Shown here: positions 33,111-50,554 of the stretch, in pieces
How positions within the stretch are numbered: the first letter of the stretch is position 1
Layout of the letters: the number at the start of each line of letters is the position of its first letter
Assembly (NCBI GenBank): GCA_963758495.1
Contig: CAVWVI010000003.1
Span: 256,001 to 320,000, forward strand
Source: Oligoflexia bacterium
Lineage (GTDB): Bacteria; Bdellovibrionota; UBA1018
Length of the DNA stretch: 64,000 nucleotides
Reading direction: 5' to 3'
Translations under genes and position numbers: made by a program
Notes under the pieces: model-generated
Database searches by the model: none
What the model was told of the DNA's origin: nothing
Seen by the model: the letters and a program-made list of their open reading frames with translations, nothing else

Positions 33111-33182
33111 AAGAAGTGCAAGGAGTCTTATTGCGCCGTAAAGATTTGGATTCCCGGCGCAATAAGACTCCTTGCACTTCTT
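33111..33182. repeat. Perfect 28-bp inverted repeat (16-nt loop), probable terminator for slyD
   Basis: aagaagtgcaaggagtcttattgcgccg / cggcgcaataagactccttgcacttctt. Confidence 0.85.
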
Positions 33183-39395: not shown

Positions 39396-40925
39396 TCACT
39401 TGCTTGAGTCATATGCGTCCCCATCGTCTAGAGGCCTAGGACATCGCCCTTTCACGGCGGTAACCGGGGTTCGAATCCCCGTGGGGACGCCAAAAAAATT
39501 GCTTAAAGAAACGCTCAAGGTATTAATATCTTGAGCTTTTTTTTCGCCTTGTGGGTCAATTGAATTAATTAATACATCTCTCTTCAAGGGCCTGCGGGGC
39601 ATATGCGGGACAAGAGCCCCTTTTTCCAAAGTTATTGTCGCAGGAGCTGCAATCTTGTTGTTTGGTTCTGATCGTTGTTGCGAACTTCGATAGGAGGCAG
39701 CAGACCTATTTAGAGATAGGATTGCCTGAAGAGCTGCGGCCTTAACCTGCTCTTCTGAAGACTCCCCCAATTTTGATATGACTTCTTGAACAAGCTTTGC
39801 CATTTTTTGAACGTCCGTACTTTCATCTTTCTCCGAACTTTTAAGATTGTCAAAAGCAAAGTCATCGCAAAGCCTCAAATCACCGTCTAAAAGATGTGTA
39901 TAGACCCGCGACGTAATACTAATGTCAGAATGACCTAAGATCACCGATATCTTCTTAATTCCCCAACCTTGGCGGATTTTATTACTAGCGAAGCTATGTC
40001 TTAATGTGTGCAAGTCGATACGCTGTTCCAGCCCAGCTTCCTTTGCAGCCACCTTAAGAGGCTTGAGCAGATAACGATCATTGTAGCGTTTGCCATTCTT
40101 TTTCGTGAAAATGAATGTCGCTTTGCGGGTTAGTTCGTGAAGAGCTTCCCAAGCACCCTCATCGAGAGGCACTCTTCGCTCCCTTCCGTTTTTACTAGTA
40201 GCAATGTAGATAAAATCGCCGTTACCATCGATGTCGCTCCAACGGAGGTTGAGAGCCTCACCCCTTCTCAAGCCTGTATGTGCAAGAAACTTCACGAAAG
40301 GATAGAGAAGAGCGCAATTGGACTTCTTTGAGGCTGCAAAGAGCCTTTCCAATTCTTCAGGTATTAAAAAATTGATTTTGCGCGTTGGAGCCTGCCGGGG
40401 AAAATACTTTTTGAAGTCTCTCATCCGTCGAATTGGATTTTCTCCATTGGACTCGACCTCAGCATAACAATCACCCAGGGACGCCATCAGTGCATGATAC
40501 TTTTGCAGCGTTGCGTGAGAAATCTCTCGATCCTTCAATTCTAAGTAAAATTTAAATAAAGTTTCTCTTTTCAAATCCTTGAATTTTAGTTTTCCTAATT
40601 TAGGAACGACGTCCTTCCTTAGACGTCGCCGTGTTTCATTTTGCCAATGAGGTTTGGCAGTCAAGAACTTCACACTTTTTAAGAAGAGATGCGAAATCTC
40701 CTCTACGTTCCGATTGAGAGTTTTCTCAGGAGTCTTAGGCTGGGGATCTAGTCCCAAAGCCAAATCACGACGAACCTCTGCTTCAAGCAGTTTAGCTTCA
40801 TTCTCAGTTCTCCCTGCTGCACGCTTGATCCACTGCCCCGTCTTTGGGTCCTTCCAGCGTACGATCCAGGTGACGTTTCCACTCCGGTGCTTCTTAGCAA
40901 AGATATTGGTGAAAAGTTGATTCAT
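39396..40925 (-). CDS. int: Tyrosine integrase with long C-terminal extension overlapping tRNA-Glu antisense
   Basis: TGLRRGE, SKNG, HTLRH, LGHS, VYTH; N-terminal arm-binding-like WIVRWKD; ATG 40925 with AGGGG RBS. Confidence 0.93.
   Translation of the reverse strand: MNQLFTNIFAKKHRSGNVTWIVRWKDPKTGQWIKRAAGRTENEAKLLEAEVRRDLALGLDPQPKTPEKTLNRNVEEISHLFLKSVKFLTAKPHWQNETRRRLRKDVVPKLGKLKFKDLKRETLFKFYLELKDREISHATLQKYHALMASLGDCYAEVESNGENPIRRMRDFKKYFPRQAPTRKINFLIPEELERLFAASKKSNCALLYPFVKFLAHTGLRRGEALNLRWSDIDGNGDFIYIATSKNGRERRVPLDEGAWEALHELTRKATFIFTKKNGKRYNDRYLLKPLKVAAKEAGLEQRIDLHTLRHSFASNKIRQGWGIKKISVILGHSDISITSRVYTHLLDGDLRLCDDFAFDNLKSSEKDESTDVQKMAKLVQEVISKLGESSEEQVKAAALQAILSLNRSAASYRSSQQRSEPNNKIAAPATITLEKGALVPHMPRRPLKRDVLINSIDPQGEKKAQDINTLSVSLSNFFGVPTGIRTPVTAVKGRCPRPLDDGDAYDSSK
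39417..39492 (+). tRNA. tRNA-Glu (anticodon UUC); ICE integration site
   Basis: GTCCCCA/TGGGGAC acceptor stem, loop CT-TTC-AC, TTCGAAT, CCA. Confidence 0.97.
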
Positions 40926-40936
40926 TGCAATTACCC

Positions 40937-41176
40937 CTAAGCCGACGCCCACCCATTACTTTGTTCTTGAGCTAACCAACGAACAAACTCTTTCTTTGGA
41001 AATCGAACCTCACGACCCACTGCAATTCTTGGAGGTCGCCGTTTGGGTTCTGATCTCTTAGCCCAATTATAAACAGTCCGACGATCACACTCCAAGAAAT
41101 TACAGATCTCATCCAACGTAAGAAGGCCTTTTTCAGGATACAATCGATTCACTTCTTCTAGCAATGTTTCAAACAT
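40937..41176 (-). CDS. xis: Excisionase-like HTH protein
   Basis: LLTLDEICNFLECDRRTVYNW...VGREVRF; directly upstream of int. Confidence 0.85.
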   Translation of the reverse strand: MFETLLEEVNRLYPEKGLLTLDEICNFLECDRRTVYNWAKRSEPKRRPPRIAVGREVRFPKKEFVRWLAQEQSNGWASA

Positions 41177-42722: not shown

Positions 42723-44264
42723 TCAGGACCCAGAAATAGAGGTCCATTTGTCGCTGCTGTCGTTTACATTCAGATGTGATTTTTTTGGCTCTCCCTGAGC
42801 TTTGCCTGATTGCTCCCCTAAAAATGCCGGTGCAATTTCAGTTGGATTCAGAGGTTTCTCTTCTTTCCTGCCAATTCCCCTTTGCTCGGTCTTATGAGCA
42901 ACAGGCATCGAGTTCTTTTGGATTGGACGAGCTGTTTTGAAAGGAATTCGGAGTACACGTGTTTGTCCTTCAGTCTTCATACTGAAAACGCATTCGCCTA
43001 CCCTCAGAGACTTGATTCGATCGGGTGGAATAATAAATTCCTGCACCTCTCGATTCGATGAATCTCCCGTTCTAAACCCGTCGTGAGTACTGTAGGTTTG
43101 CTTCACGGTTTTTCGAGTGCCAATAAAGCGGGACCACCGTTCAGCATCATCGGGGTCATCCTGGCGAAAGATAAATCGTACATTGCAATTGCCTAAAATT
43201 TGGCCCGTAAATTCGGGACTCACCGTATTCAAATCAGAAAGAGTTTGGTGCGCCAGGTGAATCATGAATTCACTGGAACGCCCTTTATTTAGAAACGTTG
43301 AAAAACTTTCAGTAGCAAAAGCATCAAACTCATCAATATAAACGCTAAATGGACGATCACTCTTAAGAGAAGCATTCCGTTTTCTCATTCCTGAAATCAA
43401 AATGATCTCTTGAGTGAGAAGTCGACCGATACGACTACTCTGGACCTTCTTGCCCTCAGTAGGAAGGTCAACGAAGAGAATTTTATTTTGAGTGACGACA
43501 TCCAGTAGAGAGATCTCTCTGCTCGGGTCAATTTCATTCTTCTTCCCGCAAGCCAGAACCTTTTCCCATTCACCGTAAACCAGGTTATTTAGGTCAAAGA
43601 ATAGGCCTTTCAGTGTCTCATTCTTGTCATCTTCACTGATAGACTCGAGTTCTCGCAAAAGGTCACGAATGGTAAATCCATTTTGATTGGATGTAGTGAG
43701 GTGGCGAAATGCCTGAAGGAGTCCAAACTCACATGCTTTTGCATAGTGAGGTTCGCTATAGACAGCAGAGTTGAAAAACTTGGTTTGAAGTTCAGAGGCA
43801 TTCCCTAATCCACAGGGGTTCCAAATTGAACTCTCTTCAGGAAAGGTAGCCGAAAGAAGAAAGAGGTCCTGCTCCCTTCCAATGGATTGACAATAGGCCC
43901 GTACAGACTCGTAAAAACCACGTTCTCCCTTTGGATCAATGACGACGGCACCATATCCCCGTTCAAGATCTGCAAAGAGGAGCTTTTCGACAAGAACCGT
44001 TTTTCCAGTACCGGTTGCACCAACAATGTGAGTATGACGAAGACGTGCCGTGTCTCCAATCCATTCTGAGCCAATTCGAATTCCATATTTTGGTTTTCTT
44101 CTCAGGCGAAAACAGAACTTATCCCAGAACCAATTGATCACTTGTGGCTGGAGCAATGTTAAGAAGGTAACAGTAACTCCAACACTCCCCAATAGGAGCA
44201 GTTGCTCATGAGTGAATTGCTGAAAGAAACCTGACGAATGATGGAGCACCATTGTCTTTTTCAT
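42723..44264 (-). CDS. virD4: Type IV coupling protein (VirD4/TraD-like)
   Basis: N-terminal TM, HTHIVGATGTGKT, IDPKG, YIDEF, GRSS..HQTLSDL, ILGNCN. Confidence 0.88.
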   Translation of the reverse strand: MKKTMVLHHSSGFFQQFTHEQLLLLGSVGVTVTFLTLLQPQVINWFWDKFCFRLRRKPKYGIRIGSEWIGDTARLRHTHIVGATGTGKTVLVEKLLFADLERGYGAVVIDPKGERGFYESVRAYCQSIGREQDLFLLSATFPEESSIWNPCGLGNASELQTKFFNSAVYSEPHYAKACEFGLLQAFRHLTTSNQNGFTIRDLLRELESISEDDKNETLKGLFFDLNNLVYGEWEKVLACGKKNEIDPSREISLLDVVTQNKILFVDLPTEGKKVQSSRIGRLLTQEIILISGMRKRNASLKSDRPFSVYIDEFDAFATESFSTFLNKGRSSEFMIHLAHQTLSDLNTVSPEFTGQILGNCNVRFIFRQDDPDDAERWSRFIGTRKTVKQTYSTHDGFRTGDSSNREVQEFIIPPDRIKSLRVGECVFSMKTEGQTRVLRIPFKTARPIQKNSMPVAHKTEQRGIGRKEEKPLNPTEIAPAFLGEQSGKAQGEPKKSHLNVNDSSDKWTSISGS

Positions 44265-44950
44265 TGATAGTCTCGGCGATCAAAGAGTCGAACTTCCCCT
44301 CGTTGAGTCCAAACTGGAGGGATTGACGATTTTAGACAGTTCCAATGAACAACACCCATAGGCTGTTCCTTTGGACCAGAAGGAAGATACTTCTTTATCG
44401 ATTCGAAAAGTGTGTCTTGCGTTGCAACGTAAAGGACAAAAATAATTCCTGGAATGTCCTTCCATCGATTCATAAGATGAATAAAACGCGATCGACCTTT
44501 GTCCGAGTTTTCTACTTCAATCGCAATGCCTTTTCCTGATTTGAAGAAAAACAATCCATCTGGAATCTGACGATACTCTTTACCCTTAATTGCACGCTCG
44601 CAAACGAAATGAGCATCCCAGCATTCCTCTAACCGTTGACGCACTGACGTCACAATTGAGTCATGAACTAAGGTTGCGAGTTGGAGATTTCTGACCGGTG
44701 TATGGGGAGTCGCTCCACTTTCAAGGGCAACTCCTGCTCCCGTTCGTGTGGTTCGATAAATGGGTTTTCGACCTAAAGTTGATGTAAGTTCTTCAAATAG
44801 AAAGTTCCCTTTAACCAACTCTTGCACCCTCATTCTACAAGCTCTGTAAGATGCATTTGGAAAAAACTTCTCAACATGCTCCGTCAAAAGAAATTGTTGT
44901 TCGTAACAGAGCTTCAGAATTCTCCTATCTCTGTCCTGAAGAATGATCAT
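44261..44950 (-). CDS. Replication-relaxation-type protein (wHTH + PD-(D/E)XK), probable relaxase
   Basis: LQDRDRRIL N-terminal HTH; HD; IPDG...AIEVENSDK; translationally coupled to the coupling protein. Confidence 0.75.
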   Translation of the reverse strand: MIILQDRDRRILKLCYEQQFLLTEHVEKFFPNASYRACRMRVQELVKGNFLFEELTSTLGRKPIYRTTRTGAGVALESGATPHTPVRNLQLATLVHDSIVTSVRQRLEECWDAHFVCERAIKGKEYRQIPDGLFFFKSGKGIAIEVENSDKGRSRFIHLMNRWKDIPGIIFVLYVATQDTLFESIKKYLPSGPKEQPMGVVHWNCLKSSIPPVWTQRGEVRLFDRRDYQ

Positions 44951-45015
44951 GCTGGTCCCCTCTTTGTTTTTAGGTTTTTGTTTTTCTTTGTTTCCAGTCC
45001 CCTGTCTCCTCCCCC

Positions 45016-45187
45016 CATGAACTCCCGGCCCGCACTTTGGATCTTGGATCTAGACTTTGGATATCGCTTTGATTTGCCGACCCCGCTCACTCGTCGTTGA
45101 GTGGGTGGGGTCGGCAAATGCGCCAGCAAGAAGCGATTATCTAAAGACCTGGATCTAAAGAGGAAAGGTGCGGGCCGGGAGTTCATG
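45016..45187 (+). other. 172-nt rod-like hairpin (candidate oriT, single-strand origin or antisense RNA)
   Basis: Perfect 20-bp outer stem catgaactcccggcccgcac/gtgcgggccgggagttcatg plus nested stems with G-T pairs only on the + strand. Confidence 0.8.
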
Positions 45188-45199
45188 CTGAAGTTCATC

Positions 45200-45715
45200 T
45201 CAATTCTTCGCATCATGAACCCCTGACTGAATTGGCTTTGCGAAGAGTTCGCCGGAACGTTTTACTCTGTATGCCTTGTGCGGTTCGTGAAGAGTGCCGT
45301 CTTCTGAGACAGAATCCTCTTCAATGAATTCCTCAATGACGAGGGGTTGAATTCGTTCCCTTACAAACTTCGGAAGTTGCTGGTTAGGCGTAACTTGGAA
45401 CTCACGCAGAGATCTATCGAGACTCTCTTGAGCTTTAAGATCGCCCTGGGATTTTGGAACCTCTGGTTTGGAGTCGGTAAGAAGTGCAGCAACACCTCCT
45501 AGTAGTGCACCGCTTAAACCGAACACCAAAGTATTCAACATCCTGCTTTCTTGGTTGGGAGAGAATACTGCCCCTCCTGCTGCACCCAACCCCGCTCCAA
45601 GTCCAGTCCCCAAGAGAAATCGTTTTCTTCCGGTGAGACTGGCACATCCTGAAGTCGATAGAACTGCCAAGAGACTCCACACGATATAGATGACGGTTTT
45701 GCGTCGGAATTTCAT
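45200..45715 (-). CDS. T4SS lipoprotein, TraV-like, with Gly zipper
   Basis: Lipobox TSGC; C-terminal EDGTLHEPHKAY resembles the TraV D-G-x-LH-x-P motif. Confidence 0.6.
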   Translation of the reverse strand: MKFRRKTVIYIVWSLLAVLSTSGCASLTGRKRFLLGTGLGAGLGAAGGAVFSPNQESRMLNTLVFGLSGALLGGVAALLTDSKPEVPKSQGDLKAQESLDRSLREFQVTPNQQLPKFVRERIQPLVIEEFIEEDSVSEDGTLHEPHKAYRVKRSGELFAKPIQSGVHDAKN

Positions 45716-46488
45716 CAGAAGCGAACCTCCTCTTGGACGAGCACAGTGAGAGCGGTCTGACTTTCAACAACAAGGATTGGCTTTTCAGCAGTTGCTTCCT
45801 CGATAAGTCTTTTGCCCTGATCTGCAGCCGTTTGTGCGACCCCCTGCAACAGAGCATTCCTTCCTGTAGGCTGCGGAGTGGAAAATCCAAGTGCATTTGT
45901 ATTTTGAGTTTGTTGAGAAGCAGCAAACCCAGAAATAAAACTAGACGCCATTGCTCCAGCAACAGCTACAGCCTTACCGCTAAATACTTGAGCCTCAAGT
46001 CCATAGGCTCCACTAGTGTCTAGGCCAGTGCTTTGAATACCTACTGCCTTGCCGGTCCTTAGAAGGAGTTTATTAAACTCTAAAGTGAGGCGTCCTTCGG
46101 TTCCAGCCTGACGCGCTAATCCCATGAGCTTAAGATCTGAAAGTGCTCCCTGGCCAGAATCCAATACGATCAAAATGGGAGAACCATCGGGACCCACGAC
46201 AAGACGAGTGAGAGTCTTTCCATAGAGAAGCTTTCCAGTAGGAATTTTCACTGTGCTAAAATCCGAGTGCACTTGGAATAAGGGTTTTTGGTTGGCCTCG
46301 CTGTTTTGAGTAGGTGAAAGGGAGGCCGGATTGCTGTCAGCAAATCCCACGTTAAGGCCAAACTTTCGCATCAGAACATCGGTTTCCTTTTGTTGATTTC
46401 GAAGACCGATAGTTCGTCGCTGGTACTCGGCATCAGTCATTGCCAGAGCAGGGATACTGAAAAAAAGAACAATCGCTGTCTTTCTCAT
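45715..46488 (-). CDS. VirB10/TrbI-like protein (short)
   Basis: KIPTGKLLYG, RLTLEFNKL, GLDTSGAYGL, KPILVV pattern of the TrbI C-terminal domain. Confidence 0.7.
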   Translation of the reverse strand: MRKTAIVLFFSIPALAMTDAEYQRRTIGLRNQQKETDVLMRKFGLNVGFADSNPASLSPTQNSEANQKPLFQVHSDFSTVKIPTGKLLYGKTLTRLVVGPDGSPILIVLDSGQGALSDLKLMGLARQAGTEGRLTLEFNKLLLRTGKAVGIQSTGLDTSGAYGLEAQVFSGKAVAVAGAMASSFISGFAASQQTQNTNALGFSTPQPTGRNALLQGVAQTAADQGKRLIEEATAEKPILVVESQTALTVLVQEEVRF

Positions 46489-46823
46489 TCCAAATCTCCT
46501 TTTGCTCGGTATTCCAAGTCCGATGCTCTTGGTGATTCTGAAGAGGGAGCAATTGCAATCACTCGTCGAACCGTTCCGGTGCTTGTCTCCAAAATCAGGT
46601 TAGTCCTTGCAGATCCGGAAAGAGGTTTTAGTAAGACTCCGCATCCCAGCTCCTTGGGGAGAGACTCAAGGCGAACTAAAGCGTCATTTCCAATAGCAGA
46701 GACAAATAACCGGCCTTCGCAGCGAACCTTCGTGATGAAGCCGGGATAAAGCTTGAGAACCTCTTCTGCGCTGACAGAACTCGATATAAAAAGCGTGATT
46801 AGGCCCAAAACAAATCGTTTCAT
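46485..46823 (-). CDS. Small exported T4SS protein (VirB9/TraK N-domain-like)
   Basis: Signal peptide; LKP...TNLILET motif; position between the VirB6- and VirB10-like genes. Confidence 0.5.
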   Translation of the reverse strand: MKRFVLGLITLFISSSVSAEEVLKLYPGFITKVRCEGRLFVSAIGNDALVRLESLPKELGCGVLLKPLSGSARTNLILETSTGTVRRVIAIAPSSESPRASDLEYRAKGDLE

Positions 46824-47611
46824 TCTGCTTGTACCGGACCTTTCTTGAAATTTAGGATTCGTCTGACACTTCGAAATAGACTCGCCTGAGAATCGAGGTC
46901 CCCTGAAAACGCTCCAGAGAGAAACTTATGAGTCATGGCTGGAATCATTAGAATGAGAATAATGGCAAGAAGTTCTACTGCAACGACGTACAGTCCCCAG
47001 CTTCCGGCCTTCAACATTTCTTTTCTGGCCACGAGAGCGGTCGTAACCTCCACTGCTGACAGCATTGGAAACCAAAGAGCTAATTCGATGGCATAAAGTG
47101 ACATGTGGTTAAACATTTGAGGAGCAACAGGATACACACCGCAGGCAATGGGAAATAAGAAGAGCAGTAATGTCCAAAATACATCTCTCGCGCTCTCCAG
47201 CAAGAAGGATGCGATTAGGAATACCCAGTCTACGACTGCGCACATCACCCCCCAAACGCCGGTTCTCCAGGCCTGTTCTAATACGGCAGGCAAATTGAAC
47301 GACGTGGAGGTTCCTGACGGTCCTGGTTCCCCAGAAGCCTTTTGAAACGCATTGAGAATGATTGCTCGCAGATCCTCCTGATGCCCAAGCCTAGAAATGA
47401 CAGTCGATAGTCCTTCTGAGAGAATCAATAGCTGAGAAGCCGCTGACTTGAAAAAAATCAGAGCAATACAACCGATTGCCATCCGCTCAAAAGAAAGATG
47501 CAAGTCAAACGAGCCTCGCATTGATCTGACTAAACAAAACCCAAACGACGCACCTAAAAGTAATCTGCCAGAAGGAATCAATATATCTGGCGTAACAGAT
47601 TCAGTGATCAT
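46820..47611 (-). CDS. VirB6-like polytopic membrane protein
   Basis: About 5 TM helices, LFPIA, ELALWFP; operon position. Confidence 0.6.
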   Translation of the reverse strand: MITESVTPDILIPSGRLLLGASFGFCLVRSMRGSFDLHLSFERMAIGCIALIFFKSAASQLLILSEGLSTVISRLGHQEDLRAIILNAFQKASGEPGPSGTSTSFNLPAVLEQAWRTGVWGVMCAVVDWVFLIASFLLESARDVFWTLLLFLFPIACGVYPVAPQMFNHMSLYAIELALWFPMLSAVEVTTALVARKEMLKAGSWGLYVVAVELLAIILILMIPAMTHKFLSGAFSGDLDSQASLFRSVRRILNFKKGPVQAE

Positions 47612-48318
47612 CGGTTGCTCCCCATTCGGCCTTTGCGAGAAGCAACCGTGAGTTGTCGCTCGTAGAGAACTCGACGCATTTTTGATTCTTGAAGGTCTTT
47701 CGAGACTTGGCTCTTTTGAAACTCCAAAGACATGGCTTGAAGTTGGACTAATTCCGACATGGTTTGGAGTTGTACGCCGGTGGCAAGCATTTGAGCCGAA
47801 GAGCTAGCTGCAGTAATTTGACTCGCTCTTCCAGGAGTTGCTGTTTTTGACTCCTCAGACAGCTTTGTGCCAGTTATCACCATTTCCTGTCCCATTTTGT
47901 AAGCAGTGTCCCCTTGTATAGCGCTACTGGTGATCGCTTGGTCAGCTAGTGACACTTTCACTGCCATCAGATCGTCAATCTGCTCTTTTGTTCGTTGGGC
48001 TCGAGAAATAAGATCGTTCAAGTCAGATAGACTTCGAATTGAAGTAGGATCGAGGCCCTGACTTCTCTCTATTATGGATTGAATATTATAGATTTGGTTA
48101 ACCGCTCGATCCACGCCCTCATTTAAGTCTTTCAATGTATTGATTTGATCCTTGGCAACCCCAATATTCTCCGTAAGTCTTTCGATCTCGGTGATTTGAC
48201 CCGACACCAGCTGAATAAGTGGGACCATTTCAGATCCAAAAAATGCATGGGCAGTTGGACAGGACAGTAAGGAACTAGAAAGGACCACAAAGGAAATCCC
48301 TAGGAAGGAGAAACGCAT
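47608..48318 (-). CDS. VirB5/TrbJ-like exported helical protein
   Basis: Signal peptide ending AHA, Gln-rich helices; follows virB4. Confidence 0.6.
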   Translation of the reverse strand: MRFSFLGISFVVLSSSLLSCPTAHAFFGSEMVPLIQLVSGQITEIERLTENIGVAKDQINTLKDLNEGVDRAVNQIYNIQSIIERSQGLDPTSIRSLSDLNDLISRAQRTKEQIDDLMAVKVSLADQAITSSAIQGDTAYKMGQEMVITGTKLSEESKTATPGRASQITAASSSAQMLATGVQLQTMSELVQLQAMSLEFQKSQVSKDLQESKMRRVLYERQLTVASRKGRMGSNR

Positions 48319-50144
48319 CGTTGGCTCCTTTCCAAAAGCTGATTCTTTCGGATCTCGGCTATTAGCTCTTCTCGAAGATTGTCAGTCCTGAGCAAAGCAT
48401 GTTCTACGTCAGTAGGATAAAGCCTCCCAAAACGAGACAGGAATGGAGTCTTAATGAGACATTCCGAGAAGACTCCTTTTTTCTGACGAAGAGATCTAAC
48501 CTTAGTCAACTCTACTGAATTTAAGCCGAGAATTCCCTGATACTGTTCCAGATCCTCTCCCTGTCGAAGAAGGATTCGAATAGGTGCGTTTTGAAAAATA
48601 CTCTGTCCACTTTGGTCAGTGAGAAAATCAGATAAACTTTGTGTAACCGCGATCGCCGCTCCGTTCAATTTGCGAAATTCACGAAATGCTCTTTGAACTA
48701 AAAGCGGTTCATCTCTCATGAAATTCCAACACTCATCTAGGACAACATAGACAGGATGAGTGGAGTCTCGTGATCTTAAAAACGCTTCTAACTGGCCTAA
48801 AATCGTTTGGATACCCATCTTTTTATCGTTCTGATCAAGATCCGAAAGTTCAATTCCGGCCATTCCACCGACACTATTGAGATGACTGAAAACACAGGCA
48901 GTTGAAGCCTGGAGTTCATTTAATTTCTTAGGTTCTTCATATCCCTGCCCAAATGCACGAACTAGACGTCGAAAACTTCTATTATGATCAATGAAAAGAA
49001 CGCTCATCGGAACTCTGGCTTCGATCATTCTCTTCAGTACCAAACCAGTAAAGAAACTCTTTCCACTTCCAGAAGCGCCTACTACAAGCCAGTGGAGAGC
49101 CTCTAACCTCGAATCGTTGGGTGAAAAGTAGAGAGGCTTTTTACGGACGGTTGTCAGAATAGATGCACCTGGCTCGACTGGATCATTCAGATTTGGAATC
49201 AAATCACATGCAGTTACTGCACGAACCAGATGGGTACGATGAAGCCTGTGTCTCAAACCCAGCGTAGCGCAAACAGCCAAATCAGCTCGCTTCTCGTGAC
49301 AAAACATCGAATGGTCTAGGTCCAACTTCGAAGGTGAAATGAGGATAAGGGAGATTTCTACTAGCGTTTCATCTCCGCGAGATAGACCCTGAAGAACTGC
49401 GCTTGAATCTTCAAAAGCAACCTCTGCATCAATATCTGAGATGACAGAATCGCCTCTGGCATTGTTGCGTCGGGAAATTTCAATTTGACGTTTAACTGAC
49501 TGAAAGCTTACTCCTCGAACAGTTACGACTACTGTAACCGGCACATCAATTCTTTTTAGAATTGAAAAAAGAAACAGCGGGTCGGTTTGAACGGGGATCT
49601 GATAGAGAGAATAGACTTGTTCCTGACCTGTATAGATTCCTCGAGTTATTTCTGAAAAGTCGAGTTTTCCTGCAAGACTAAATCGCCCTGAGCAGCCAAT
49701 TTCATAGCCTTCTGCACCTTTATCGCTCATTTCGCAGACAATTGTGTAACGTTCATTTTCGTTGAGACTGACAATTCGTTCAAGGAGAGCTTCCTTGGAT
49801 GCAATCAATTCTCTCTCATCAAGAGTGTCTGGAGGTTGAATGTCGAACGGAGTTTCCAGGAACTCGGATCGACCATTTGGATTTTTAATCCTAACCCTTC
49901 GCTCGATTGGCCAAATAAGAGACTCTTCCCAACCTGTCTTTGCGAACTGGCTCGTCACCCTAAGAATGACGTAGCCTGATGCTCCCACTGCTAAGGAAAT
50001 AAGGTCTCCATAGCGAACTCCTCCGAGAGCTACTGACATCCCTAAAACTAGGCTTGCTAGTCCAATTAAACCAAAGAGTGGAACTCCGAATATCAGCGGC
50101 CTTCTTAAAAGATTCCTGGCTGTGGGCTCGCAGTAAACTCTCAT
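48300..50144 (-). CDS. virB4: VirB3-VirB4 fusion ATPase (compact, 614 aa)
   Basis: N-terminal RRPLIFGVP plus 2 TM (VirB3-like); GASGSGKS, LDECW, REFRKLNGA..VTQS. Confidence 0.82.
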   Translation of the reverse strand: MRVYCEPTARNLLRRPLIFGVPLFGLIGLASLVLGMSVALGGVRYGDLISLAVGASGYVILRVTSQFAKTGWEESLIWPIERRVRIKNPNGRSEFLETPFDIQPPDTLDERELIASKEALLERIVSLNENERYTIVCEMSDKGAEGYEIGCSGRFSLAGKLDFSEITRGIYTGQEQVYSLYQIPVQTDPLFLFSILKRIDVPVTVVVTVRGVSFQSVKRQIEISRRNNARGDSVISDIDAEVAFEDSSAVLQGLSRGDETLVEISLILISPSKLDLDHSMFCHEKRADLAVCATLGLRHRLHRTHLVRAVTACDLIPNLNDPVEPGASILTTVRKKPLYFSPNDSRLEALHWLVVGASGSGKSFFTGLVLKRMIEARVPMSVLFIDHNRSFRRLVRAFGQGYEEPKKLNELQASTACVFSHLNSVGGMAGIELSDLDQNDKKMGIQTILGQLEAFLRSRDSTHPVYVVLDECWNFMRDEPLLVQRAFREFRKLNGAAIAVTQSLSDFLTDQSGQSIFQNAPIRILLRQGEDLEQYQGILGLNSVELTKVRSLRQKKGVFSECLIKTPFLSRFGRLYPTDVEHALLRTDNLREELIAEIRKNQLLERSQRCVSPS

Positions 50145-50145
50145 G

Positions 50146-50412
50146 TTATCGCACCTGACTGGAAATGAAGTTCCAAACTCCGGTCAAACCAAGTAGACAA
50201 GCAATTGCGACAACAACTCGAACTGTCTCATTCTTTGCATTCGGATCGCCTTGAATATGTGCAAAGATATTCTTTCCGAGATATCCCACAGCTACGATTG
50301 GGAGAAGCCTGCCCGTAAAGGCTTTTACCAAGTTATTCAGAGTTCCTTCAAGGTCTGCCGCAAACGCAACCTCTGGCACTAGGAGACTTAAGAGCAAGAG
50401 AGGTTCATTCAT
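50146..50412 (-). CDS. VirB2/TrbC-like pilin
   Basis: ATG 50412 with GGAG RBS; PEVAFA-A signal peptide then two hydrophobic helices. Confidence 0.75.
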   Translation of the reverse strand: MNEPLLLLSLLVPEVAFAADLEGTLNNLVKAFTGRLLPIVAVGYLGKNIFAHIQGDPNAKNETVRVVVAIACLLGLTGVWNFISSQVR

Positions 50413-50554
50413 TGCTCCAGCTTTCCGAACGAACCTACCTAAAGTTTTTTCTTTATGTGTTGCTTTCAAACCGGCCTCCTTCCGATATGCATCCAAATTC
50501 TGCGACCGCAAGACATCTCTTTTTGCGACGCACTAACAAATCGCGGCGAGTATG

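Follow-up and report, generated by a model that had tools for sequence, protein, structure and literature searches.

In an Oligoflexia bacterium (GenBank assembly GCA_963758495.1) a run of conjugation genes carries a 172-nt inverted repeat, referred to here as the rod, just before a small gene for a putative relaxase. What is the rod for, on which of its strands does it act, and how can a structure of this size sit inside a set of closely packed genes? A first-pass annotation had read the rod as an origin of transfer (oriT) or single-strand origin that marks + as the transferred strand, or else as an antisense RNA that gates expression of the relaxase and integrase genes. In this paper we compare the rod, the relaxase and the surrounding reading frames across related loci in genomes and metagenomes. 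All positions refer to the window, that is, the whole stretch of 64,000 nucleotides that was analysed (contig CAVWVI010000003.1, positions 256,001 to 320,000 of the forward strand), and + and - are its strands.

The rod and its two strands

45016..45187, + strand: the rod, a large imperfect inverted repeat of 172 nt; likely a MOB_C-type oriT with + as the likely nicked strand (fold scores, self-alignment, recurrence before the relaxase)

The limits 45016-45187 proved exact on reanalysis. The outer stem is a perfect 20 bp, the four inner stems are present as first described, and the five non-Watson-Crick positions inside them are all G-T on the + strand; a strand-neutral self-alignment of the whole rod gives 68 Watson-Crick pairs, 7 G-T, 0 A-C and 5 other. 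Folded as DNA, the + strand reaches -65.7 kcal/mol (z -12.4, reached by 0 of 200 shuffles), and as RNA -122.4 kcal/mol (z -13.9). The earlier statement that the rod folds fully on only one strand did not stand, since the - strand also forms the long rod, at -55.8 kcal/mol as DNA (z -11.3) and -97.7 kcal/mol as RNA (z -12.2); the folds of both strands lie beyond all 200 shuffles, and the gap between the strands as DNA is about 10 kcal/mol.

The rod is single-copy in the 3.66-Mb genome, and a MITE- or REP-type palindrome, of which many dispersed copies would be expected, was therefore ruled out. The genome does hold REP-like palindromes of about 72 bp, unrelated to the rod, in more than 25 copies with arms of at least 18 bp; one example lies at about 33111-33182 of the window (C3:289111-289182).

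The element around the rod

45715..50511, - strand: type IV secretion system (T4SS) genes, by Pfam VirB10/TrbI-like (45715-46488), three unassigned ORFs, VirB4-like (48300-50144) and VirB2/TrbC-like (50146-50511, a weak match), with junctions that overlap or abut
45200..45715, - strand: 171-aa gene before the ORF that crosses the rod; no Pfam family, lipoprotein-like to judge from its N-terminus, homologues in many loci
42723..44264, - strand: type IV coupling protein, TraD/VirD4-like (Pfam TrwB_AAD_bind, TraG-D_C)
39396..41176, - strand: excisionase-like HTH_17 gene (40937-41176) and tyrosine integrase gene (39396-40952), by Pfam, at the far end of the gene run that holds the rod
39445..39492, + strand: 48-bp att core in the 3' part of tRNA-Glu (39417-39492), with an exact second copy at G000:C3:326920-326967 of the contig

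Read along the - strand, the gene order is VirB2-like (weak), VirB4-like, three unassigned ORFs, VirB10-like, the 171-aa gene, the rod, the 229-aa relaxase, the coupling protein, a 503-aa gene, the excisionase-like HTH and a tyrosine integrase ending in tRNA-Glu. All junctions in this run are overlapping or at most 22 nt apart. The 48-bp direct repeats bound an element of about 31.5 kb at tRNA-Glu which, judged by its gene content, is an integrative and conjugative element (ICE).

Cargo within the window comprises a sigma-54 response regulator, a kinase, an HTH-TPR protein, a DUF6119 protein and a weak YhaV-like match (all by Pfam), and beyond the window, still inside the element, an ORF that its Walker A motif marks as ParA-like lies with a 499-aa neighbour near the far att site (G000:C3 324165-326505). 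The integrase frame traverses the att core (window 39396-39492); counted from the core, it has 31 residues before its stop at the tRNA end and 88 at the far end (G000:C3:326920-326967), so that the C-terminal tail of the integrase would differ between the integrated and the excised element.

The relaxase

44261..44950, - strand: putative MOB_C relaxase, 229 aa; MarR-like winged helix plus PD-(D/E)XK (restriction-enzyme-like) domain with D131, E145, E147, K151, R155 and H96; Phe156 where TraX has Tyr181

By itself the 229-aa protein has no Pfam match; a PDB sequence search returned no match, Foldseek returned nothing at E<=0.001, and the viral contigs searched hold no relative. A tblastn search of plasmids gave four weak matches (E 0.09-0.7), of which two are annotated MobC and one is on a MOBC-typed plasmid. 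Homologues are present in 36 of the 101 genomes searched, its own included, and 25 of 38 aligned family members match Pfam PF13814 Replic_Relax. Compared as a profile, the relaxase family matches an annotated MobC at 97% (E 3e-11) and the pTEF1 TraX orthologue at 84% (E 8e-6).

A structure model of the protein (pLDDT 95) has an N-terminal domain of MarR type (residues 1-81; Z 10.9, rmsd 2.4, 77 aligned) and a C-terminal domain (residues 82-218) like SdaI and R.BspD6I2 (SdaI-like Z 9.1, rmsd 3.4, 119 aligned), and a 2025 review gives this layout of MarR-type plus PD-(D/E)XK domains as the architecture of TraX (PMC12857230). D131, E145, E147, K151 and R155 align with TraX D152, E170, E172, K176 and R180. 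By its modelled winged helix and the D-E-E-K-R set in its PD-(D/E)XK domain, we assign the protein to the MOB_C relaxases. Tyr181 of TraX, proposed as the covalent residue in PMC6736028, falls in a column that reads F 26, L 5, M 1 and Y 6 in the 38 relaxases (Phe156 in the window protein), and no Tyr column is invariant across the alignment. A Tyr at this position is proposed for TraX and is not an established hallmark of the MOB_C relaxases.

Conservation of the rod and its core

45096..45112, + strand: sequence-conserved 3'-arm motif that opens with GT, has an invariant G at every second base and closes with GGTC; probably the site that the relaxase recognises (invariant columns of alignment A2, 37 rods; information profile)

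The relaxase search gave 57 matches, of which 50 were taken as loci; 48 of these have a relaxase match and 43 have at least 300 nt upstream. An unguided fold scan places the best hairpin just before the relaxase in most loci. Conservation at this position in related elements, on which the first-pass annotation had staked its reading, is present: 37 of the 43 homologous loci have a core-bearing rod before the relaxase, a count that is not independent of the pattern, which was derived from the same loci. The six loci that lack the core motif are four distant relaxase matches (24-32% identity) and two partial matches. Among 33 rods the median length is 166 nt, and 30 measure at least 130 nt. When the strands of 37 loci are compared, the one antisense to the relaxase has the better fold in 34; the two are equal in one locus, and in two the order is reversed.

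Searching genomes with the motif only yielded 41 loci, 25 of them with a relaxase match on the expected strand and side (19 of these repeat loci of the relaxase search). The same search of metagenomes yielded 53 loci, reduced to 36 new non-redundant ones, of which 17 have a downstream relaxase match and 30 have 500 nt to inspect. Matches in named genomes are mostly from Bdellovibrionota, Oligoflexia or Bacteriovoracaceae, with some from Elusimicrobiota and Bacillota, and the core motif thus crosses phyla. In six records from Elusimicrobiota, Bacillota or unnamed bacteria (L058, L060, L075, L081, L082, L084) the rods are shorter and a distant relaxase-like gene lies 250-400 nt off.

Comparison with known MOB_C origins

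45109..45110, + strand: predicted nick, G^GTC, by analogy with the published CloDF13 nic

The nic site of CloDF13 is given as GGGTG/GTCGGG in PMC5935869, which cites Nunez and de la Cruz 2001. In the CloDF13 record an imperfect inverted repeat of 134 nt holds this site in its 3' arm, on the strand antisense to the mob genes. Registering our rod on G^GTC predicts a nick at 45109|45110 on the + strand, a placement that rests on a short core common with one published nic; offsets below are counted from this point. The two origins share a rod with G-T but no A-C pairs on the nicked strand (3 and 0 in CloDF13), a GAC...G^GTC helix, and a MOB_C relaxase (MobC in CloDF13) with a coupling protein (MobB). 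They differ in setting, since CloDF13 is a mobilisable plasmid with its oriT before the mob genes, whereas the origin here lies mid-operon in an ICE with a full T4SS. Only here do we find the relaxase before the coupling protein, a longer rod, the 17-nt alternating-G motif and an ORF across the rod.

The oriT2/TraX system of pAD1, seen through the related pTEF1, is similar as well. In pTEF1 the coupling protein and relaxase genes are separated by a rod of 142 nt whose 3' arm carries G^GTC; it has 4 G-T and 0 A-C pairs and is antisense to the relaxase, which combines a wHTH with a PD-(D/E)XK domain in which D, E, E, K and R align. Unlike the rod here, which lies under an ORF, that of pTEF1 is in a gap of about 700 nt without an annotated gene, and the Tyr181 of TraX is replaced by Phe here. 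The pAD1 bind site consists of direct repeats 70-120 bp downstream, according to PMC12857230. In contrast, direct repeats of this type 3' of the nick were found in 3 of 33 rods at p<=0.05, about what chance gives, while the pTEF1 control was positive. The rods carry a weakly conserved GAAA patch at about +32 (window ~45142), and a G-rich outer arm at +60 to +72 (window ~45170-45182) resembles the core motif in 8 of 33 (1.8 expected); either is possibly a second relaxase contact in place of the direct repeats. Gene order also departs from the usual, in that MOB_C relaxase genes generally follow the coupling protein gene (bioRxiv 2024.01.30.577996) and here the relaxase precedes it.

Taken with the relaxase next to it, these likenesses make the rod very probably a MOB_C-type oriT, in a variant form without direct repeats or the TraX tyrosine, placed mid-operon and crossed by an ORF conserved in frame. 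The relaxase would in all likelihood recognise the G-rich 3'-arm motif and nick at G^GTC as in CloDF13, and the + strand would leave 5' end first, with the T4SS genes entering early and the relaxase gene last. The oriT reading of the first-pass annotation, with + nicked and transferred, is therefore supported, though by the MOB_C relaxase neighbour and the match to CloDF13 and pAD1-type origins in shape, core and polarity.

The strand argument of that annotation, which took the G-T positions as a sign of selection on +, proved weak. In 50 non-redundant rods the ratio of G-T to A-C is 67:2 on the loop side, so that a + bias does exist there, largely because the 3' arm is a fixed G/T-rich motif in which any transition of the partner yields G-T. 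In the free distal stems of the same rods the ratio is 76:57 (p 0.12), and a stricter distal count over 87 rods gives 31:19 (p 0.12); strand selection via G-T wobble in the distal stems was rejected as not significant. Distal isolated mismatches only, again in the 50 rods, give 41:23 (p 0.03; 18:15 per locus), the one nominally significant count of three. At offset -6 the pair is Watson-Crick in 18 of 33 rods and T-G in 15, with nothing else, a possible sign of real wobble on +; common descent of the loci or a C-to-T mutation bias could equally produce this pattern. The + polarity is better argued by analogy with CloDF13 than from G-T bias.

The helix at the predicted nick

45073..45118, + strand: nick-spanning 13-bp helix, in which 45073-45085 pairs with 45106-45118; Watson-Crick pairing kept with compensatory changes, looser apex and loop between

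In the 33 non-redundant rods, each position from offset -4 to +8 is Watson-Crick paired in 32 or 33. Offsets +3 to +8, which were not used for the register, hold only 0.07-0.68 bits of sequence information, yet they are Watson-Crick in 195 of 198 cells, and in the 36 new metagenome rods in 204 of 216. Across alignment A2 94.6% of helix cells pair, against 43-54% in slid controls, and 12 of 17 pairs have changed on both sides, a figure that 0 of 500 shuffles equalled. On the loop side, from -5, pairing is looser and the sequence is fixed. Structure is thus selected distal of the predicted nick, where sequence is free, and sequence is selected on the loop side.

Nicking costs the fold only about 2 kcal/mol. 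The two ends of the transferred strand flank the nick, and since the left arm is the partner of both, the rod would keep them together as a nicked duplex. As the relaxase has no invariant tyrosine, the cut may leave free ends, and it is our tentative proposal that the left arm then takes up the 5' head and the 3' tail again, giving a nicked duplex that is perfectly paired to either side of the nick and ready for ligase or the relaxase. Francia and Clewell reportedly suggested in 2002 that the repeat of pAD1 may help to ligate the transferred ends. The idea of a splint is itself not new; comparative support for it may be. Searches of the main texts of largely open-access papers found no precedent for the splint.

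The rod could also be an ordinary MOB_C oriT with a covalent intermediate on His96 or Tyr174, the relaxase itself sealing the ends and the helix doing no more than provide, within a cruciform or a folded single strand, the double-stranded substrate required by a restriction-type active site. Such a route would account equally well for the covariation of the helix. His96 is invariant in 38 of 38 relaxases and aligned with a His of both known-type MobC proteins, and Tyr174 is found in 29 of 38. A catalytic His is known in the MOB_V relaxase MobM, and Y181 of TraX is reported to be essential (PMC6736028). A labile covalent bond formed by His96 would make a splint unnecessary. Against this, PMC6736028 and PMC12857230 record no covalent intermediate for CloDF13 MobC or TraX, and the covalent route alone leaves unaccounted for the retention of a further stem of about 60 bp with a strong outer helix. 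Since the relaxases share no invariant tyrosine and MOB_C has no reported covalent intermediate, the splint is modestly favoured, and the covalent route is a serious but somewhat doubtful alternative.

If true, a self-splinting origin would answer how MOB_C DNA recircularises without a covalent pilot; recruitment, transfer and religation in the absence of a covalent intermediate are called an open question in the 2025 review (PMC12857230). The family offers a compact test case for MOB_C religation, with a 229-aa relaxase, a nick predicted to the base, a 13-bp helix with natural compensatory variants and the natural loss of the proposed catalytic tyrosine.

The open reading frame across the rod

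44947..45216, - strand: bridge ORF, 89 codons; spans the whole rod and overlaps both the upstream gene's stop and, through ATGA, the relaxase start; no conservation of the peptide

The rod had been described as lying directly upstream of the relaxase. It is 66 nt before the gene; it lies wholly within the bridge ORF on the - strand and is not a spacer between genes. The bridge peptide has no Pfam match, and the ESM Atlas gave no usable one, a result that speaks neither for its absence there nor for its novelty.

The sense frame through the rod is open in 29 of 32 loci (a locus with Ns was omitted), against 19.7 expected with the core fixed, whereas the antisense frame is open in 18, against 18.4. 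An ORF was counted as a bridge if it started -20 to +12 of the upstream stop and ended -25 to +20 of the relaxase start, or was fused to the relaxase. The upstream gene is in view in 27 of 33 loci and out of view in six; by this definition 22 of the 27 have a bridge (3.6 expected), and the other five have none. The upstream stop reads ATGA in 20 of the 27, compared with 123 of 1513 comparable stops in the genome of the Oligoflexia bacterium. The loci are kin, and P values for the bridge are overstated. In metagenome loci, a set collected after the idea was formed, the bridge is present in 7 of 7 testable loci (1.1 expected). Among the metagenome rods, 12 of the 12 that directly precede a close relaxase have the open frame, and of the 22 others only 12 have it (12.7 expected), so that rods not directly before a close relaxase have no excess of open frames.

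The peptide is another matter. Relative to the nick the bridge is read in frame 2, 1 or 0 (11, 6 and 5 cases), which requires at least seven frame changes on a tree of 23 relaxases that is poorly resolved (4 of 20 branches starred). In three close pairs only, substitutions at codon positions 1, 2 and 3 number 59, 54 and 76 in the bridge and 86, 52 and 206 in the relaxase; the bridge pattern is flat (p 0.12), with a slight third-position excess (40%), and differs from that of the relaxase (p 2e-5). One close pair has compensating +2 and -2 indels in the bridge. The bridge is conserved as an open frame and not as a protein, with little sign of protein-level selection. The frame changes, together with the negative control from the other rods, speak for selection on translation across the rod and against selection on the peptide, despite P values inflated by kinship.

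It is improbable that the bridge is a genuine gene for a small accessory protein, or that it extends the relaxase at the N-terminus, with the basic and disordered nature of its product being what counts. Its coupled start and stop resemble those of a true gene, 4 of 22 bridges are fused in frame to the relaxase, and the slight excess of third-position changes would fit. On the other hand, three frames read the same conserved DNA with repeated changes between them, the codon-position pattern is flat and unlike that of the relaxase, and neither Pfam nor the Atlas has a match. In seven loci (L005, L008, L017, L021, L027, L036, L129) no stop interrupts the frame that leads through the rod into the relaxase, and annotation would there call the relaxase some 85-100 residues too long, unless the fusion is real.

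Selection for translation would be understandable from the position of the rod. As the origin lies within one long coupled operon, its mRNA copy would be a hairpin of -98 kcal/mol. Left untranslated, this hairpin would interrupt coupling and expose the message to Rho or RNase III, and the genome has members of both families. Ribosomes that cross the bridge would probably melt the hairpin, deny Rho and RNase III their target and re-initiate at the relaxase gene.

Leader and coupling peptides whose translation matters and whose sequence does not include R1 tap, IncI repY and E. coli uof, in which, as proposed here, translation opens an RNA structure and passes ribosomes to the next gene; these differ in being short regulatory switches. 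An oriT that overlaps a reading frame is found in nicK of ICEBs1, where the frame encodes a real protein. The same is true of pAD1 oriT1, within repA (bioRxiv 2024.01.30.577996). The bridge, by contrast, is a frame of 70-110 codons whose apparent purpose is to span a cis-acting DNA hairpin and which has changed frame repeatedly. Searches of the main texts of largely open-access papers gave no precedent for it, so that 'unreported' is provisional.

The best explanation of the locus as a whole is probably a MOB_C-type ICE oriT with a predicted + cut at 45109|45110, crossed on the opposite strand by a frame whose openness is conserved and whose peptide is not, and which likely keeps the operon translated. 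More speculatively, this may be a widespread family of ICEs with a tyrosine-less, restriction-type relaxase, a self-splinting origin that closes into a ligatable nicked hairpin, and a 'placeholder gene' selected only for its translation and re-tuned after each indel, which may make expression of the relaxase, coupling protein and integrase depend on the origin being intact and resealed. The bridge is a comparative example of an ORF conserved over a DNA site for translation and not for its peptide. It also bears on oriT discovery, which now takes the first intergenic stretch upstream of the relaxase (bioRxiv 10.64898/2026.01.13.699239) and so would miss an origin under a called ORF.

Other readings and rods without a relaxase

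A single-strand origin or ssDNA promoter of the ssoA or Frpo type, used after entry with the nick elsewhere, was the other half of the earlier oriT suggestion. Such an element would look like a long rod, and in 34 of 37 loci it is the + strand that is slightly the more stable; consensus scans found no CS-6-like motif and no sigma-70-like -35/-10 elements, and the strict linkage to MOB_C relaxases and the nic-like core also speak against it, which leaves this reading very unlikely as the main function. The rod may have a second role in priming after circularisation.

Several motif hairpins have no relaxase match in the expected place (L061, L067, L072, L083, L085, L086, L089, and L064/L065, two copies 1462 bp apart). 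Some have integrases, a serine recombinase, ParA, or BrnT toxin and other toxin-antitoxin genes as neighbours.

The least probable reading of all is that the rod acts as RNA, either as an antisense transcript or as a structure in the mRNA by which relaxase-integrase expression is gated: the RNA fold is very stable on both strands, G-T wobble suits RNA and the mRNA necessarily carries the hairpin, but there is no Rfam family near gathering score (three weak matches lie far below) and no promoter or terminator pattern, and motif rods beside integrases, toxin-antitoxin and other genes with no relaxase nearby fit a DNA site used in trans.

The relaxase-less motif rods are candidate oriT-only hitch-hiking elements, and the conserved motif thus also serves to flag such elements where no relaxase is near.
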